Below are positions 1-59,620 of a stretch of DNA of 64,000 nucleotides, piece after piece. The DNA comes from Rhynchobatus australiae (lineage: Eukaryota), in contig JAUZTB010000070.1 of assembly GCA_034780895.1 (NCBI GenBank), positions 21,370,818-21,434,817 on the forward strand. Reading direction: 5' to 3'. Numbering within the stretch: position 1 is the first letter of the stretch; the number at the start of each line of letters is the position of its first letter. Made by a program: the position numbers and the translations under genes. A model generated the notes under the pieces. It was given only the letters and a program-made list of their open reading frames with translations. It had not been told where the DNA came from and made no database searches.

Positions 1-6429
<6,429 letters not shown>

Positions 6430-11120: not shown

Positions 11121-11290
11121 CTGGAGGAATTCAGTGGGCCAAACAGCATCTATAGAGGCAAGGGGATAGTCAATATTTTGGGTTGAGACATAACATTGAC
11201 CATCCCTTTGCCTCCACAGATGTTGCTTGACCCACTGAGTTCCTCCAACAGTTTATTTTTGTTCTGTATTCCAGCACTTACAGTCTCTTG
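11121..11290. mobile_element. Penelope-type terminal repeats forming a fold-back
   Basis: 'ctggaggaattcagtgggccaaacagcatctatagaggcaaggggatagtcaat' recurs inverted at about 11192-11247. Confidence 0.75.
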
Positions 11291-14869: not shown

Positions 14870-15480
14870 CAGAGGACATTTATTTGTCTAAAACCCAGAA
14901 TGGCTGGGTTGGCTTTTGAGGAAAGGTTATACAGGTTAGGCTTGTATCTACAAGAATTTAGAAGAGCAAAACGGGTTTGATTGAAACAAGATCCTGAGGG
15001 GTCTTGACAAGGTGGATGTGGAGAGGATGGTGTCTCTNNNNNNNNNNNNNNNNNNNNNNNNNNNNNNNNNNNNNNNNNNNNNNNNNNNNNNNNNNNNNNN
15101 NNNNNNNNNNNNNNNNNNNNNNNNNNNNNNNNNNNNNTGGAGAGGATGTTGTCTCTTGTGGGAGGAACTGGAACTAGAGAGTAACCCATTTCAGAAAGGA
15201 ATGAAGAGATTTATTTTGATTAGACGGTCATGAGTCTTTGGATGGTAGAAGCAGAGTCTGTGGATATTTTTAAGCCAGGAGTGTATAGATTCTCAATAAG
15301 CAAGTGAGTGAAATGTCACCTTGGATAGAATGGAATGTGGAGCTGAGGTTACACTCAGTTCGGGCATGATATCCTCTCCACATCCACCTTGTCAAGACCC
15401 CTCGGGCATGATATATTAAGTGATAGAGCCTGGTTAGGGGCCAAATGGAGATCGTCAAAACTGATGGACAAGCCATTACC
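14870..15480 (+). mobile_element. CR1 LINE 3' fragment carrying a small inverted insertion
   Basis: Encodes a decayed ...RLYRLGLYL...GLDKVDVERM..., then the 3' UTR. Confidence 0.75.
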
Positions 15481-26839: not shown

Positions 26840-27735
26840 AGACCATAAGACTTAGGAGCAGAATTTGGCCATTCAGTCCATCGAGTCTGCTCAGCTATTC
26901 AATCATGGCTGATATATTTTTCCCTCTCAACTCCATTCTCCTGTTTTCTCCCCGTAACTTTTGACACCCTTACTAATCAAGGACCTATCAACCTCCAGTT
27001 TAAATATACCCAATGATTTGGCCTCCACAGCCATCTGTGGCAATGAATTCCACAGATTCACCACCCTCTGGCTGTACAAATTCGTCTTCATCTCAGTTCG
27101 AAAGGATGTCCTTCTATTCTGAGGCTGTGTCCTCTGGTCCCAGACTCTCACACTACTGGAAACATCCACTCCACGCCCACTATCCAGGCCTTTCAATATT
27201 TGGTAGGTTTCAATGAGATCCCCCCCTCATCCTTCTAAACTCCATTGAGTACAGGCCCAGAGCCATCAAATGCTCCTGGTATGTTAACCCTTTCATTCCC
27301 AGGATCACTCTTGTAAACCTTCTCTGGACCCTCTCCAATGCCAGCACATCCTTTCTTAGATATGGGGCCCAAAACTACTCACAATACTCTGACCAACATC
27401 TCATAAGGCATCAGCATTACATCTTTGAATTTATATTCTAGTCCTCTCAAAATGAATACTAGCATTGTATTTGCCTTCCTTACTACCAACTCAGCCTGCA
27501 AGTTAACCTTAAGGGAACCCTGCACTAGGACTCCCAAGTCCCTTTGCACCTCTGATTTCTGATTTGCTCCCCATTTAGAAAATAGTCTACACCTTTATTC
27601 CTTCTACCAAAGTGCATGACCATACACTTCCCTCTGCTGTATTCCATCTGCCACTTCTTTGCCCATTCTCCCAACCTGTCCAAGTCCTTTTGCAAACTCC
27701 CTGTTTCCTCAACACTACCTGCCCTATCCACAGCT
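26840..27735 (-). mobile_element. CR1 LINE ORF2 3' portion
   Basis: LQKDLDRLGEWAKKWQMEYS..KCMVMHFGRRN and SQRVVNLWNSLPQMAVEAKSLGIFK. Confidence 0.93.
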
Positions 27736-37069: not shown

Positions 37070-38250
37070 TACACTAGTGGGACCTTGTCAAATGCCTTAC
37101 AAAAGTCCATAGAGACAATATCTACTCCCCTGCCTTCATCAATCTCCTTTGTTATTTCCTCAAAGAACTCAGTCAAATTATTTATACAGGATTTTTCCCT
37201 CACAAAGCCATGCTGACTATCCCTTATCAGTCTCTGCCTTTCCAAATGAACACAAGCCCTGTCCCTTAGAATTTTCTCCAATAATTTCCCTACTTCCCCT
37301 TCTCCTTTTGACATATGACTCATCAGCTGTCACAATGTTGATCGAGAGCAAACTCAGAGAACCCAAATGTGGCACACCAATACAAGACTGAAGTCAGGAT
37401 AGGACAAACACAGGCAGTAACTGGAAGGAATCTTGCCTCAGAGATCGGAAGAGGAATCCCAACACGAACTGGATCTTNNNNNNNNNNNNNNNNNNNNNNN
37501 NNNNNNNNNNNNNNNNNNNNNNNNNNNNNNNNNNNNNNNNNNNNNNNNNNNNNNNNNNNNNNNNNNNNNNNNNNNNNAGTCTGATGTCCCAACCACCCAG
37601 GGAACCGCATGTACCTGATCCAGAGCCCTACACAGGGGATCTGGGAAAATGCCGGTCCTTCCTACTACAATGCCTGTTCGTTTTTGAACTGTAGCCCTCC
37701 ATGTACTCCACTGAGAGATCCAAGGTCACATTCATCGTGGGGTTGTTGTGAGGAAGGGCGCTGGAATGGGCCACTGCCATCTGGGACCATCAGCCAGAGA
37801 CTTGCTCCTCGTTTCACACCTTCCAGTTGCTGCCTGTGTTTGTCCTGAGGAAGTATCCTGACTCCAGTCTGATATCGGTCTGGCGCATTTGGTTCTCTGT
37901 GAGTTTGCTCAACATTGTGACATCAGCCTGCAGTTACCTGGTTTATCCCAGCTGCCCTTCTTAAATAAAGGAGCATTTAGCTAACATCTAGTTTTCTGGT
38001 ACCATACCTGTGGCTAACAAAGATACAAAAATCTCTATCAGGGTTCCAGCAGTCTCTTCGCTTGTTTCCCATAGCTTTCTAGGATGCTATTGATCTCATC
38101 TACCTGGGGATTCATTCTCCCTTGTGTGTTCCAAGACATCTAACACATTCACCTTCTTAATACCAATATGCTCCACACAGTCAAAGTACCCCTCCCTGAA
38201 CTCACTATCTTCTACATCTTTCTCTTTAGTGAATACAGATGAGAAGGACT
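37070..38250 (-). mobile_element. CR1 RT relic, split by the 37328-37922 insertion
   Basis: PGNCRL|MSHMS..GKLLEKILRDR..HLERQRLIRDSQHGFVREKSCINNLTEFFEE..VDIVSMDFCKAFDKVP. Confidence 0.88.
37328..37922 (+). mobile_element. Inverted-repeat element (TG..CA ends, 5-bp TSD TCAGC) carrying a Ty3/Gypsy gag fragment
   Basis: TIRs at 37328-37428 and 37819-37922. TSD at 37323-37327 and 37923-37927. 37593-37822 reads [72 protein letters not shown], a sushi/RTL-type capsid. Confidence 0.88.
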
Positions 38251-41200
38251 TCGCCCACATCCCCAGCTGTGACATAGATTATTCTATAGATTTCCATCTG
38301 TATATTTGGCTGAGGTTTGGTAAAAATTTCTGTGAAATATTTAAACAGATATTCTTCTGAATTACAGACCACTGTAAGGTAATCCCCCCCATACCCTTCC
38401 CCAGTTCTATTATGTACTTACACACTGAAATGGACCATACAGAATTTGAATCACGTGAAAACAGAAGTAAAACATTACCATAATCAGAATAAACACACAC
38501 CAGACAGCAATAAAATGCCTGAAGTAAAATTGCCAGGATTTGAAAAGAAAAGAAAAATGACATAAATGAGCCTGGTTTACTGGTTTAAAAGAATCTTAAT
38601 ATGTTTACTTTTGAATAGGAGCTAGCTGCTTAATGCCTCGGTGTTAGGACCTGGCAACAGAGGCACATGACTTGCTGTAAAATGAAAGCAGTTTTTGGTT
38701 CCTTTGGTTTACACCCATACACGGAAGAATAGCTTCTTGTTTGAGGGCAATGAAAGTCAAAGCTTCCACTACAAAATGGTGAATTTCTCCAACCAATAAA
38801 TTTTGTGGAAAGAATCTATGTTGACCATTGACAAACACAAATGGGGAAGGAGAATGACTAACACTCCCTGTAATCAGCTCATGAATGTGTTATGCCAGCA
38901 TTGCAAACATTGATAAGCAGAAAACATAACTACAGACAGACATCTGCCAGATCTTTCATATATTCAGAGGTGATATCTGTTATGATGCTTATTAACTGTA
39001 ATATTTTGCTTTATTGCAAAAAGAAATTTAGCTATATCTCTTTAACAGATGAAAGTTGATGAGAATGTCAGGAATGTGAAGCTCCACCTAGAAAGCATTC
39101 CACAGCAAGGATGGATCCAGTAGTGATTACATTATTCTCACCATGAACTACCTTGACAGGTTTATTGAAATCCAATCAAAGCATTGTTATTCATGCACTG
39201 GGCAAAATCAAAATTTACTGAGTATTTTAATATATCTAGAAAACAATATTTTCATACATAAAATAACATATTTCTTATATTTATGTATGCTAGTGAGTCA
39301 CCACAGGAAAATTCACAGTTTTTATTACAGCACTGAGATGTTTGCAGTTGTACTAAGCTCTGCCATTTTGCTCAATGCTTCAAGTTTTTGCTTTGGCTTA
39401 ATTAACCTACCTCTGCAAAAAGAGGTCATGCAGAATTAATAGCTTTGAAAATCAACAACAACTGTTCTGTGTATTTCTGCTCTGACATTGGTGCGAGTTT
39501 GTTAAAGCAGCAACTTTCATTTATATTGCACATGTAGATGTAACATTCTAAGATACTTCATAGGTGTATTATCAAACAAACTTAAACACCATGTTACATA
39601 AGTTGATGACTAAACAGGCAACTAAAGGCTCTGTGAATGAGAAGGCAAGATAGAAATGAGTTGGAACGACATTTGGAGGGATTTCCAAAGTTGAGGNNNN
39701 NNNNNNAGTTGAGGGCTTAGTGAAGTCAAGACAATCCTGTAACAATATTTATAGGCCTTGTGCACCAGGCCAAAAATCAGAGGAGAGTGAAGATATTAAC
39801 ATCCTCTGGATCTCTAGGAGTTTACAGTTGAAAAGGAAGGGAAGGATTTGAAATCAAGGAATCTAAAATTTGATGTTTTGCTGGGTCAGGAGCATTGGAA
39901 CAGTGGAACCTTCATGTAAGAAAACAAAGGCCTTTTCACCTGGCCACAACTTAGCAATGTTTTGACCATTGCGGGCACTAGCACAACTTTCATTTATGGT
40001 ACACCTTCAGTTTAGTGAAAACTTCCAAGGCACTTCCCTGGAATAGTTTCAGAAATAATTTCAAATAGTCAGACACCATGCCATAATCTATCTAGCCCTT
40101 CTGCTCAGTTATATGAATGGTGAGTTAAGGTGGATTCTTCAGCTGTGCCATGTATTGCCACTGTTGTGAGTGATAGGGAGGGGCACATAAGGAATTCAAT
40201 AACCTCACTGCAGGATCCATTTATTTCAATTATGTCCTGAGAGACCAGTTATAGGGACTCACTCAAATACTTTTGCACAGAGGAGCGAGGGACAACAAGC
40301 ATGAGAATTCTTTTTTAAATTACTGAGTTGTCAAGGTGCCAGTCTGTTTGTTAGCAAGCATAGGTATGATGGTAAATGAGTCTAAGAGTGAGTTAAGATA
40401 GGGCAACAGGGTTTTGGGCAGACAACATTTGACACAGAGCCACATGAGGAAGTATTAGGACAAAAGACTTAAAAAATTAGAGAAATAACTTTATTAGGAA
40501 CAATTTAGAGGAAGAGAGCAAGATTTAAGGAGGGAATTTTATACATCTAAAAGTATAGTTGCTAATGGTGGGGATAAAGGAAGTTATGAATACTCAAGGC
40601 CAAAGTTAGAGTAACACAAAGTTTTCAGAAAGTTATAGGGTTTGAGATGGGGAAGAATGTGACCATGAAGGGACTTAATTGCAAGGGTGAGAATTTTAAA
40701 TTTGGGGCCTTTCACCCCACCCAATGCATGACTCAAAAACTTCTGTCTGGATCATGGATCAGAAATAAGGTTTCTGATAAGGTACATATTGGTGCTAATT
40801 CTAGAATTTTTGCCTGTTGTTTAGTTTTGGCCCCAATAAAGAAATGAAACATTGCCAATACACCTGTGGAAGAACACAGCTTGGATAATACACTGGACAG
40901 ACCAACACAGCATCTAAAAGACTGTGCCTTGTTGGATGTCAGCAGCTGCATAAGAGAGAGGTGGAGACCAGGTGAAAATTAGAGAGGGAACATTGTTAAT
41001 TTATAATATATAACAAAATCAAATAAAACATACCAAGTGTGATTGGAAAAATGCCAAGTATTTCTTAATGTTAGCAGATGGACGGAAATAACAGTTTCAA
41101 TATCTTCCTGTTTATTAGTTAATTTAATCATTCCCTTGGTTTATAGCTAGCTGACAATGACAAGAGCCATGTGCATTCATTTTCCTGGATATGCATGATT

Positions 41201-42759
41201 AATAAATGGTCTTTTGTTGTCTCCAGTTATCATGCCTGAAATTGAGTTTATTGTATTCAATTTACATTTGATATTCATTGGACTTTGTTGCTTTCATAGG
41301 AAGTTGACCTAACATGAATCTGACACTGGAAACAGGGAACAGCTGTACCTTGTAGGAACATAATTTCCAACATCACCTGCATATACTTCGTTAGCAGTTA
41401 TCTGTTTCTAGTCACAATTATCAAAACATAATAAGGTGTATATTCTTTCTAAGCAATCTATATATGCAGGAAGAATAATAATTGCAACTGGAAGAGATTA
41501 AGATGATGTTGCAAAAGCCATTTTTGGATTATGATATCTAATTTTTGTGTTTATTATTCCATGGCTTTGAATACTGTCGGGTGTTATCCATTGTAAGTTT
41601 TATAAGGCCTGAATCAATGTACAGTAACAGTCTGCTGCAGTTGCTTCAAAAGACACACCCTGTGGTCAGATAGAGGGCAAATCCTGTTAGCCACATCCTG
41701 AGGTTAATGATAAACAAGGGAAATCTTAAATTTGTTTTTAAGTTGCATCTTACTCAACAAAGTACAACTTTTTAAGTGACTTTTATTTTCTGAGTAATTT
41801 GGAAAAATTTGAACTTCACATTGATTCACTGATTTTGCATTGATTAAACCTGCAGCAGCACAACCTACAGAGAGGCGGTGAATCAATGACAGCAACTTCT
41901 GAATTTACATGTTTAACCGCAAATATGCAAACCTGTTATCATTCGTCCACTAAACNNNNNNNNNNNNNNNNNNNNNNNNNNNNNNNNNNNNNNNNNNNNN
42001 NNNNNNNNNNNNNNNNNNNNNNNNNNNNNNNNNNNNNNNNNNNNNNNNNNNNNNNNNNNNNNNNNNNNNNNNNNNNNNNNNNNNNNNNNNNNNNNNNNNN
42101 NNNNNNNNNNNNNNNNNNNNNNNNNNNNNNNNNNNNNNNNNNNNNNNNNNNNNNNNNNNNTTTTAATACTGCTTCCCCACCACCACCTTCCAGCACTTTC
42201 ACTATTATTGTCATTGTAAATTTTATTTAGCCCCTTTAGAATCTTAAAACCACCTATTACATTGGTTTAAAATTTGCAGTGAAAATAATGGATTAATTAT
42301 CAGTATTCATTGTGTGACAGATGAAAACTGACAATCAGAATGCATATTCACAGGTAAACATGGAAATTCAGAATGCTGTCAATGATTCATCACTTCTTCA
42401 CAGACAATTGTTCTTCATATTCCATCATTCCATCCCCTTAATCATTCTGGTTTCTCACTAATGCATCTTCACAGCTGCTACAATAACACTTTGGTACTAT
42501 GGTGGCTAGAATGGTACAAAGTATTTTAATTGTTATTAATAGTGGTGAGATTACTGCACTCATTTGGCTCAGTGTTCACCTTGTTACAAAATTCCAACAT
42601 CTTCTATTACTCTCTGCCACTGAGCACTACTGTGGTAGCTCCAATTATTTATTAGTAAGTACCTATCTGGGGAACTTTGCACCATCCTCCTAGTTTGCTT
42701 TGTTCAGTGTTGGTGAGAGGACAATCCTTGACAATAGACACTGTCATTTGTGTCTCACT

Positions 42760-53055: not shown

Positions 53056-53460
53056 ACAAAATGCTGGAGGAACTCAGCAGGTTAGGCAGCATCTATAGAG
53101 GGAATGGACAGTCAATACTTTGGGTCAAGACCCTTCATCAGGACTGGAAGGAAAGAAGGTAGAAGCCAGTATAAAAGANNNNNNNNNNNNNNNNNNNNNN
53201 NNNNNNNNNNNAGCCAGTATAAAAGAGGGACGGATGGAGCAAGCACTTGTAGGTGATAGGTGAATCCAGGTGAGAGGGGGAACATAGGTAGATGGGGGGA
53301 GCCACTACTGGCTTCTGCCCTCTTTCTTTCCAGTCCTGATGAAGGGTCTCGACCCAAAACGTCGACTGTTTATTTCTGTCCATAGATGCTGCCTGACCCA
53401 CTGAGTTCCTCCAGCATTTTGTGTGTAGCTCCAGATTTCCAGCATCTGCAGTCTTTCTTG
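53056..53460. mobile_element. Penelope-type fold-back element with ~115-bp inverted arms
   Basis: 53056-53171 and 53306-53422 are near reverse complements. Confidence 0.85.
53331..53368 (+). ncRNA. Minimal type-I hammerhead ribozyme motif, one core substitution
   Basis: CAGUC-CUGAUGA-AGGGUC(UC)GACCC-aAAA-C-GUC-GACUG. Stems I and II pair and CUGAUGA is intact; GAAA appears as AAAA. Confidence 0.6.
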
Positions 53461-55364: not shown

Positions 55365-56278
55365 CAAAGATAGGTGGAGGTGCAGGTAACATTGCGGAAG
55401 CAGTGAGTCTACAGAAGGACTTGGACAGGTTGGGAGAATGAACAAATAAGTGGCAGATAGAATACAGCGCAGGGAAGTGTATGGTCATGCACGCTGGTAG
55501 AAGGAATAAAGGCATAGACTATTTTCTAAACAGGGAGAGCATTTAGAAATCAGAGATGCAAATGGACTTGGGAGTCCTAGTGTGGGATTGCCTGAAGGTT
55601 CACTTGCACGTTGAGTCAGTAGTAAGGAAGGCAAATGTAATGTTAGCATTCACTTTGAGGAGACTAGAACACAAAAGCAAGGATGTAATGCTGAAGCTTT
55701 ATAAGGCATTGGTTGGACCACATTTGGCTTATCGCGAGCAGTTTTGGACCCTGAATCTCAGGAAGGATGTGCTGATGTTGGAAAGGGTACAGAGAAGGCT
55801 TACAAGAATGATCTTGGGAGTGAAAGGGTTAATGTATGAAGAGTGTTTGATGGCTCTGGGCCTGTACTCAATGGAGTTTTGAAGGATATGGGGGGATTTT
55901 ATTGAAACCTACTGAATATTGAAAGGCCTGGATAGAGTGGACGTAGAGAGGATGTTTCCAGTAGTGGGAGAGTCTAGGGCCAGAGGGCACAGCCTCAGAA
56001 TAAAAGGATGTCCCTTTAGAATTGAGATAAAGAGGAATTTCTTTAGCCAGAGGGTGGTGAATCTGTGGAATTCATTGCCTCAGACGGCTGTGGAGGCCAA
56101 GTCATTGGGTATATTTAAAATGAAGATTGATAGGTTCTCGATTAGTAGGGGTGTCAAAGGTTATGGGGAGAAGGCAGGAGAATGGGGTTGAAAGAGAAAA
56201 ATAAATCAGCCATGATCGAATGGTGGGGCAGACTCAATGGGCTGAATAGCTTAATTCTGCTCCTTTGTCTTATGGTCA
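55365..56278 (+). mobile_element. CR1 LINE, 5'-truncated, relatively young
   Basis: DLGVLV..LKVHLHVESVVRKANVMLAF...LYKALVGPHL...FFSQRVVNLWNSLPQTAVEAKSLGIFK, then the tail. Confidence 0.95.
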
Positions 56279-58140: not shown

Positions 58141-59620
58141 AGCACTGATATCTGTGCCACCCCACCATTGCCAATTTGAAAATGACCTATTTATCCCAAC
58201 CTTCTATTTTCTGTTAGCCAATCCTGTATCCCTGTTACAAATACCATAAACTCTTACCTTGAGGGGTAACATTTTGTGTCCCTTTAAAGAATGCCTGTTG
58301 GAAATCTAAATACACAACGTGCTGGTATTTCCTTATCCACCCTGCTTGATGTATCCCTGAAGAATTAGTTAATTTGTCATATGCTTTTCTCTTTAGAAGT
58401 TGTTGGGTCTACTTGATTATATTATCATTTACTAAAGGTACTGCTATTATTCCCTGAATAATGGATTCCATGATTTTGCCAATGACAGATGTTCGCCAAA
58501 CTCTTTCCTGCATTCTCCTTCCTTTCTTGAATTGGATCATTGCACTTTTGGTTTTCCGATTTACTAGCATGTTTCTATTTAGGATAATTTAGAAGATCTC
58601 AACCATTTTTGTGGGCAGCAGAATTCAAGAAGGGAGTTCCACAGTCCCTCCCAATTGAGAGATCAATCAATAGTTGAGACACTGAATGCATTAAAGACTG
58701 ACAGAATGGAGACATTCAAAACATTAGATGTACTTATAATTGGTACGCTACCAAAGTCAAGTTTATTGTCATATACACAAGTACATGTATCAATGAAAAA
58801 CTGAAAAAATCTTGGATGCTTGGCCAAGTGGATAAATGTTGCAGCAGCATCATAGGGATATAGCATCAGATAAACAGCATCCTCAAGAAAAACATAAATT
58901 AACAACATAAACTATGCAAAAATTATACAAGAAAGAACACAATTAGAACAAAAAAATCAAAGTCCATTGTAGTGGTCACAGTGGTCATAATGAAGCTGTA
59001 CTGAGATAGTGATTAGAGTTGTGCAGGTTGGTTTAAGAAGTGAACAGTTGAAGGGAAGTAGTTGTTCTTGAACCAGATGGTGTGGGACTTCAAGCTTCTG
59101 TAGCTTCTGCCCAATGGTAGCTACGAGAAGATGGCATGGCCCAGATGGTGGGGATCTTTAATGATGAATGTTGCCTTCTTGAGGCAGTGCCGCATCCAGG
59201 ACTGAATGGGATGAATTATAAGGTTTTGAGGAAAGCACAAGAAGAAATCATGGGGGTGCTGATGATAGTTTTCCAGTGTTCTTTGGATACATATGTGGTA
59301 CGAGAGAAATGGAGGACAGCAAATGCTACTTCCTTGTTCAAAAAAAGGAGTAAGCTTAAGCTCACCGATTTGAAGCCAGTGGTGGTGGGAAAGATTTTAG
59401 AAACATTGAACCAGGAGAAAATTAATAGTCACCTTGAGGAAAATGATTTAAGTCAAGTCAGCATGCATTTATCTGTGCAAATCATATTTAACCAATCTGA
59501 TAGAATTTTTTTTGCTGAGGTAACAGATAGAGTTGAAAAGTAAATGTATATGGACTTGTATATTTATGGTTAATGTCTATGGACTTCCAGAAGACTTTTG
59601 ATAATGTGCCACATAACACC
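58140..59620. mobile_element. LINE cluster: CR1 (-) ~58140-58600, Rex1/Babar-type 3' end (-) ~58752-59192, CR1 (+) ~59195-59620
   Basis: WRTANATSLFKK...VVGKILE...MDFQKTFDNVPH on the plus strand. The 'aagtcaagtttattgtcatatacacaagtacatg' tail is also seen at about 17640. Confidence 0.75.

Follow-up and report, generated by a model that had tools for sequence, protein, structure and literature searches.

The 64-kb stretch of DNA analysed here (the window) contains an insertion, between 37328 and 37922, in which a fragment of a Ty3/Gypsy-type gag gene is enclosed by two inverted arms of ca. 100 bp and bordered by a 5-bp target-site duplication. The structure was confirmed as real and unusual. Its leading explanation, still a tentative one, is that an aberrant Tf1/sushi-type cDNA, which would have carried the U5 end of the LTR at both termini, was inserted once and could not replicate. 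The features of the insertion and of the LINE that it interrupts are given in Table 1.

Table 1. Features of the insertion and of the surrounding LINE; positions are those of the window.
Feature	Position	Strand	Remark
Host LINE, reverse transcriptase part downstream of the insertion	37072–37327	-	CR1-like
Left target-site duplication, TCAGC	37323–37327	+	
Left arm, antisense LTR end, probably the 3' end (R-U5)	37328–37428	-	
Inner left continuation, probably more antisense LTR (R)	37429–37477	-	No partner on the right
9-mer like a PBS / self-primer motif, candidate start of R	37464–37472	+	Motif of fish sushi elements
Scaffold gap, 100 N	37478–37577	.	Covers the joint of left piece and gag
Gag capsid fragment, DUF4939	37578–37823	+	82 codons, two stops
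Gag-to-arm junction, CCTTC	37819–37823	+	5 nt in which the arm match overlaps the final codons of gag
Right arm, putatively the last 104 nt of the LTR in sense	37819–37922	+	Ends TGACA; not gag-derived
Right target-site duplication, TCAGC	37923–37927	+	
Host LINE, part upstream of the insertion	37923–38270	-	Outer limit approximate

Structure of the insertion

The element has precise TG..CA-type termini of the form TGT..ACA: it opens with TGTCACAATGTTGA at 37328 and closes with the exact reverse complement at 37922. It consists of 495 sequenced nucleotides and a gap. A match of 5 bp between the flanks has a chance probability of 0.0014. There are 68 pairs of perfect inverted 14-mers no more than 6 kb apart in the window, five of which begin with TG, and only the pair at 37328–37922 has 5-bp direct flanks. 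The inverted alignment of the two arms (37328–37428 and 37819–37922) has a local score of 102, compared to a maximum of 28 in 300 shuffles. The first-pass annotation of this DNA, made from the letters alone, had proposed both the TCAGC duplication and the inverted arms, and both are borne out by these figures. It had also described the arms as reverse complements apart from small indels. They are indeed reverse complements, but their differences go beyond small indels – 86 of the 111 alignment columns match, and the others comprise 8 substitutions and 17 gap columns in four indels (6, 2, 1 and 8 nt), with 91.5% identity in the paired columns. The arms diverge from base 13 onward. They are repeated in inverted orientation only, and no direct repeat is found within the sequenced part of the element. 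A short unit with terminal inverted repeats (TIRs) and a target duplication has the features of a MITE, and these are present in 37328–37922.

The match between the flanks reaches 7 bp (CATCAGC, 37321–37327 and 37921–37927) because the target had CA ahead of the five duplicated bases; an extension of this kind agrees with chance (ca. 1 in 16).

The interrupted sequence is a LINE, which we take from its motifs to be CR1-like. Its minus-strand frame reads ...KPGNCRL to the right of the element and LMSHMSKGEGEVGKLLEKIL... to the left, in register when one TCAGC is counted, and the reverse transcriptase (RT) frame does resume on the minus strand, as had been claimed, once the element and one TCAGC are removed. 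The duplication and the resumption of this frame in register together bear out the insertion of the element as one integrase-type unit. The left LINE flank matches RVT_1 with an E-value of 1.2e-4, which is below the curated cut-off. Both flanks match a second LINE copy at 59229–59468, weakly (E 0.048 each) and with a spacing of 107 versus 85 nt. In another comparison with the second copy the left flank gave an E-value of 1e-4, and the right flank gave no match in one frame, for which frameshifts are the probable reason.

Compared with the LINE motif, the host LINE also carries a short pyrimidine-rich insertion that stays in frame (KGEGE on the minus strand, at ca. 37294–37307). It lies ca. 20 nt to the left of the element.

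The gag fragment

The interior of the element had been read as a sushi-type capsid piece with two stops, and the profile match agrees with this: 37578–37823 matches DUF4939 with an E-value of 5.6e-8, with stops at 37692–37694 and 37749–37751 and with no frameshifts or indels in its 246 nt. An exhaustive search found 2111 related proteins at E ≤0.001; among the best 150 of these 2111, the top four are 53–59% identical to the fragment. Ty3-type capsid domains (DUF4939, Retrotrans_gag, Ty3_capsid) were present in all five of the relatives that were scanned, RT or RNase H parts in three, and a chromodomain in one. Similarity places the gag with those of vertebrate Tf1/sushi chromoviruses, and the gag family bears out the Gypsy origin first proposed for the element. 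Among the matches listed in the profile search, an organism was named in 10 of 120 rows; all ten are presumably bony fish. The fragment begins a median of 73 residues past the first methionine of its relatives (93 near-full-length proteins), and an intact gag start would therefore need ca. 220 nt within the gap.

No pol and no second gag were found in the window, and tblastn of three pol-containing relatives met the gag piece only. In the 64 kb, no second copy of either arm or gag turned up by BLASTN with the element, by tblastn or in a profile search. Among solved structures there was no match below E 0.8, and the window had no Rfam match. When the gag-plus-arm translation was used in word-based protein searches, 37 and 4 candidates came back, none of them significant; no protein match carried this translation, though these are weak tests.

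The junction of gag and the right arm

The gag had been said to run directly into the right arm, and it does so with a 5-nt overlap, CCTTC. Among the best 150 of the 2111 matches, homology to gag ends at residues 82–84 in 105, earlier in 31 and later in 14. Of 80 aligned relatives, 93% have Phe82, the last gag residue. With another scoring, 55 of 267 alignments drift beyond residue 90, gapped and at ca. 10–40% identity. An anchored test, in which 40 of 177 suitable relatives were used, gave the arm a score of 0.3 as a continuation of gag, compared to 0.55 ± 1.36 for 300 shuffles and 66–105 for real gag. The arm is thus at chance level (85 of the 300 shuffles score as well) and is therefore not gag, and the possibility that the right arm is degenerate gag was rejected.

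The match between the arms ends at 37819, while the left piece continues 49 nt inward. Given this abrupt stop at gag and the further 49 nt on the left, the length of ca. 100 bp is probably that of a breakpoint, set by a deletion or a template switch, and a designed TIR is improbable.

Autointegration was considered as a source of the junction and rejected by argument. It links the terminal CA with a site inside the element, whereas here gag meets the inner side of the arm.

Identity of the arms

The AT skew of the plus strand is +0.33, +0.57 and +0.23 along the left piece (A-rich), and -0.44 and -0.36 along the right arm (T-rich), so that the T-rich strand faces outward at either end. The value of +0.23 belongs to the inner left continuation (37429–37477), which has the same sign as the left arm. 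This opposite skew bears out the proposal that the same attachment end is present on both sides. Base skew and motifs suggest that both arms are the LTR 3' (U5) end, facing outward. The termini match the Sushi attachment motifs TGTYANR at 7 of 7 positions and CNTNACA at 6 of 7; they fit both, and the motifs therefore cannot tell U3 from U5. Sushi LTRs are described with a T-rich U3, AATAAA near the 3' end, and these two motifs (excerpt of PMC3601003), and an excerpted source gives a 5-bp target duplication for Tj1, a member of Tf1/sushi. There is no poly(A) hexamer on the sense strand of either arm, which counts against U5. No TATA or purine tract was found ahead of the right arm, the longest purine runs being inside gag or the arm.

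The 9-mer at 37464–37472, which we take to resemble the primer binding site (PBS) motif of fish sushi elements, was noticed before the model described below was framed. It sits 137–145 nt from the left tip, where a strong-stop model needs such a motif; the PBS region of the element would fall within the gap. The five bases after it fit neither leader nor U3 as expected, which counts against that model.

The inner left continuation had no match in six frames to 267 gag/pol relatives. The left piece had none in plasmids, and its match to MgpC at E 0.16 was dismissed as noise. It folds no better than shuffled sequence (z +1.27), and special folding of either arm alone was rejected (z +1.0 to +1.3). 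Bacterial and archaeal contigs were scanned for a stray fish retrotransposon LTR, with 79 pattern matches and 0 confirmed; a second scan gave 0.

Gaps in the assembly

There are 24 gaps in the 64 kb, 10 of them of exactly 100 N. The gap that had been noted at 37478–37577 is present and is one of these. Seven of the ten (at 89, 15038, 28037, 48548, 54598, 59639 and 63778) have duplicated flanks of 19–139 bp, and 100 N is therefore a placeholder size; the apparent tandem repeats at those seven gaps are assembly overlaps. The flanks of the gap in the element do not overlap, so its 100 N gives no true size. Two other 100-N gaps without duplicated flanks interrupt LINEs that do not resume, and these probably hide hundreds of bases. 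Four of the 24 gaps are inside inverted pairs (15038, 37478, 41956 and 53179, with scores of 62–147, compared to ≤31 for the other 20), suggesting sequencing dropouts related to hairpins.

Origin of the insertion

Several observations bear on whether the arms were identical at insertion. Seven of the eight substitutions between them lie within 22 of 94 columns (p 0.002, for a statistic picked after the data had been seen). There are four indels, compared to an expected 0.8–2 (P 0.009–0.14), a rough expectation based on hand-counted frame changes in the host LINE. However, the indels are located at short repeats, and the substitution divergence of 8.5% also fits decay from identical arms, given the two stops in gag. 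There is moderate evidence here that the arms may have come from two different templates.

In normal reverse transcription there are two strand transfers, one made via R and a later one that follows priming at the polypurine tract (excerpt of PMC12789967). Tf1/sushi elements are self-priming, the 5' end of the RNA being complementary to the PBS (excerpts of bioRxiv 10.1101/2022.12.06.519325 and PMC4600332). About half of Tf1 cDNA retains a single-stranded PBS end that is able to anneal to matching sequence (excerpt of PMC11042837). The likeliest route to the element, to which we give limited credence, is a misdirected first transfer of strong-stop DNA followed by priming from a second strong-stop DNA. 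Minus-strand DNA would jump early into gag at a 5-nt match, bypassing the polypurine tract. The second strong-stop DNA, with a copy of the self-primer at its end, would pair with the PBS end of the first strand – a step that would be feasible in self-priming elements – and extension of both strands would yield antisense U5-R, PBS, gag and U5. Such a product would be a good substrate for integrase but incapable of replicating again. With U5 at both termini, it would have been joined normally by integrase, leaving a 5-bp duplication; with no U3 promoter or polypurine tract, it would not multiply, and after insertion it would have decayed. An alternative route to the same kind of insertion, in which integrase paired two cDNAs by their U5 ends and host repair then linked the inner ends of the two, is very unlikely. 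No report of two-U5 products was found in the literature searched, Repbase, Dfam and most subscription papers being outside its scope. We know of no replication route for a copy that has neither U3 nor a polypurine tract.

The aberrant cDNA was weighed against five other explanations. The element could, like the MITE-like element proposed in the first-pass annotation, belong to a multi-copy non-autonomous family with inverted U5 ends, born of an accident and moved by a Gypsy- or Ginger-type integrase. The clean duplication and the insertion as one unit would suit such a family, the imperfect arms would be old TIRs that were never homogenised, and a random window is likelier to catch a family member than a one-off. 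Ginger provides an example of a Gypsy-like integrase moving DNA with TIRs of 40–270 bp and TGTNR ends (excerpt of PMC2836005). In the literature searched, which is incomplete, a precedent for inverted-LTR insertion is limited to one contrary sentence, on the Gypsy subfamily Gypsy-25 of a locust, with an 'inverted pair of LTRs' (excerpt of PMC8786324). We nonetheless consider a family unlikely: the 64-kb window has no second copy of arm or gag, the protein searches, weak tests as they are, gave no match with the gag-plus-arm translation, and the promoter, polypurine tract and transposase that would account for copying are all missing. To our knowledge, retroelement integrases do not excise, which also counts against a family. 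A rearrangement after insertion, distinctly unlikely in our estimate, would instead have inverted the 5' LTR in place via its short terminal inverted tips, or placed a second copy head-to-head with the first at the same site, and then deleted everything between gag and the last 104 nt of the 3' LTR. Old copies often carry deletions at short shared stretches, the window has other local fold-backs and inverted pairs, the gap could conceal a whole LTR, and the substitution level fits decay from identical arms. However, two independent events would be required, along with a breakpoint that falls precisely on the LTR tip and leaves the duplication unbroken; the clustering of the substitutions and the four indels are moderate evidence that the arms already differed at insertion, and a double insertion into the same 5 bp is unlikely without site preference.

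If LTRs of this kind normally had long imperfect inverted ends, the element would be an ordinary internally deleted copy, and its arms and duplication would be explained with no unusual event. This is highly improbable, as published inverted tips are ca. 7 bp with integrase contacts in the last 8–15 bp, and an A-rich U3 contradicts the T-rich U3 of Sushi (excerpt of PMC3601003); the deletion must also by chance have ended exactly on the inner edge of the inverted match. Lower still in probability is an assembly artefact, in which the gap joins two loci or a contig was continued into another, wrong copy of the repeat. The assembly is fragmented, with 24 gaps in 64 kb, a placeholder gap interrupts the element itself, and the length of the left piece, exactly 150 nt, is one that is common for reads. 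Both junctions of element and host are within contigs, however, which makes a mis-join unlikely, and the frame of the host LINE is picked up again in register, given exactly one 5-bp duplication. Differences between the arms begin at base 13, so they are not one collapsed sequence. Least probable of all is the capture of a gag fragment by a Ginger-type non-autonomous DNA transposon with TIRs of its own. The TGTNR ends and an arm length within the Ginger range would fit, as would the 5-bp duplications of TDD-4 and TDD-5, but metazoan Ginger duplications are 4 bp, at CCGG/CCGT or RTATAY, and no active vertebrate Ginger family is mentioned in the source (excerpt of PMC2836005). The ends of the element also fit the clade of the gag that they enclose, which makes a capture superfluous.

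Comparison with known mobile elements

The element resembles the Tf1/sushi chromoviruses of fish (Ty3/Gypsy, Metaviridae) in its DUF4939 gag, TGT..ACA motifs and 5-bp duplication. It differs from them in that its terminal repeats are inverted and apparently both U5, rather than two direct LTRs, and in that its sequenced part has no U3, polypurine tract or pol (RT, RNase H, chromodomain integrase). Its gag is fused to what would be the last 104 nt of the LTR, with no polypurine tract between them.

Ginger1 and Ginger2/Tdd share with the element TGTNR ends and inverted arms, those of the element being ca. 100 bp, within the 40–270 bp described for Ginger TIRs in the available excerpt. The element has 5-bp TCAGC where metazoan Ginger has 4-bp CCGG/CCGT or RTATAY, and its sequenced interior is gag, whereas Ginger encodes an integrase-like transposase (excerpt of PMC2836005). 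Ginger and sushi are both unmentioned in the excerpt of PMC4350176. The analogy to Ginger that the first-pass annotation had drawn did not hold, as both the target duplication and the coding content differ.

DIRS elements are not known to leave a target duplication, whereas the element has one of 5 bp. Its ends and duplication are of the integrase type, its gag is of the Ty3 type, and no internal copy of the outer ends is found in the sequenced part. DIRS are alike in having non-identical inverted terminal repeats around a gag-bearing interior, but they rely on a tyrosine recombinase and contain an internal complementary region (excerpt of PMC7192593). Membership of both Ginger and DIRS fails on the features tested.

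An analogy is provided by the twin-priming inversions of LINE-1, in which an inversion occurs during reverse transcription and is fixed at insertion; these differ in their non-LTR, target-primed mechanism. TRIMs and solo LTRs are, like the element, short non-autonomous units derived from LTRs, with a 5-bp duplication. TRIMs have two direct terminal repeats according to an excerpted source, unlike the inverted arms of the element, and solo LTRs lack gag and have inverted tips that are merely short. Inverted LTR copies in juxtaposition are mentioned as sources of hairpins in the excerpt of a plant preprint.

Other features of the window

A G-protein alpha subunit gene has its first coding exon at 6115–6261 on the minus strand (G-alpha, E 0.0037), and the element is ca. 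31 kb upstream of that exon. We take this exon to be of the GNAQ/GNA11 type. On the plus strand, an ORF piece at 11231–11589 matches ALKBH8_N (E 1.6e-9), a match that we assume to be typical of the 3' ends of Rex1/Babar LINEs and not a host gene. Two LINE 3' ends, at 26841–27722 and 55382–56277, are in opposite orientation and 83% alike over 897 bp.

There are three further inverted pairs. A LINE-like 3' segment has a 36-bp inverted copy (14993–15028 and 15371–15406, 97% alike) 340 nt downstream of the original, and the copy at 15371–15406 looks like a fold-back template switch. Two inverted SINE-like pieces of 117 bp (53056–53171 and 53306–53422), which are 85% alike, lie around a 33-N gap and presumably resemble the HE1 SINEs of elasmobranchs. 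A 59-bp inverted pair (41871–41929 and 42341–42397) around a 205-N gap is possibly a decayed MITE.

Implications

A single relic of this kind would be a curiosity, a fossil left by faulty reverse transcription or repair. That inverted-U5 insertions recur in fish and shark genomes, either as a by-product class of self-priming reverse transcription or as an amplified family with LTR-derived TIRs, is rather unlikely. A by-product class would be a regular outcome of Tf1/sushi self-priming reverse transcription, with different junctions at different sites. Recurring copies would be genomic evidence for self-priming in vertebrate chromoviruses, so far inferred from sequence, and would show that a pair of U5 ends is enough for germline integration. 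Annotators who expect direct LTRs would overlook or mislabel such elements. An amplified family would be an extant bridge leading from LTR retrotransposons to Ginger-like DNA transposons: it would show an LTR element giving rise to a TIR element, and would bear on the direction of evolution between Gypsy and Ginger.
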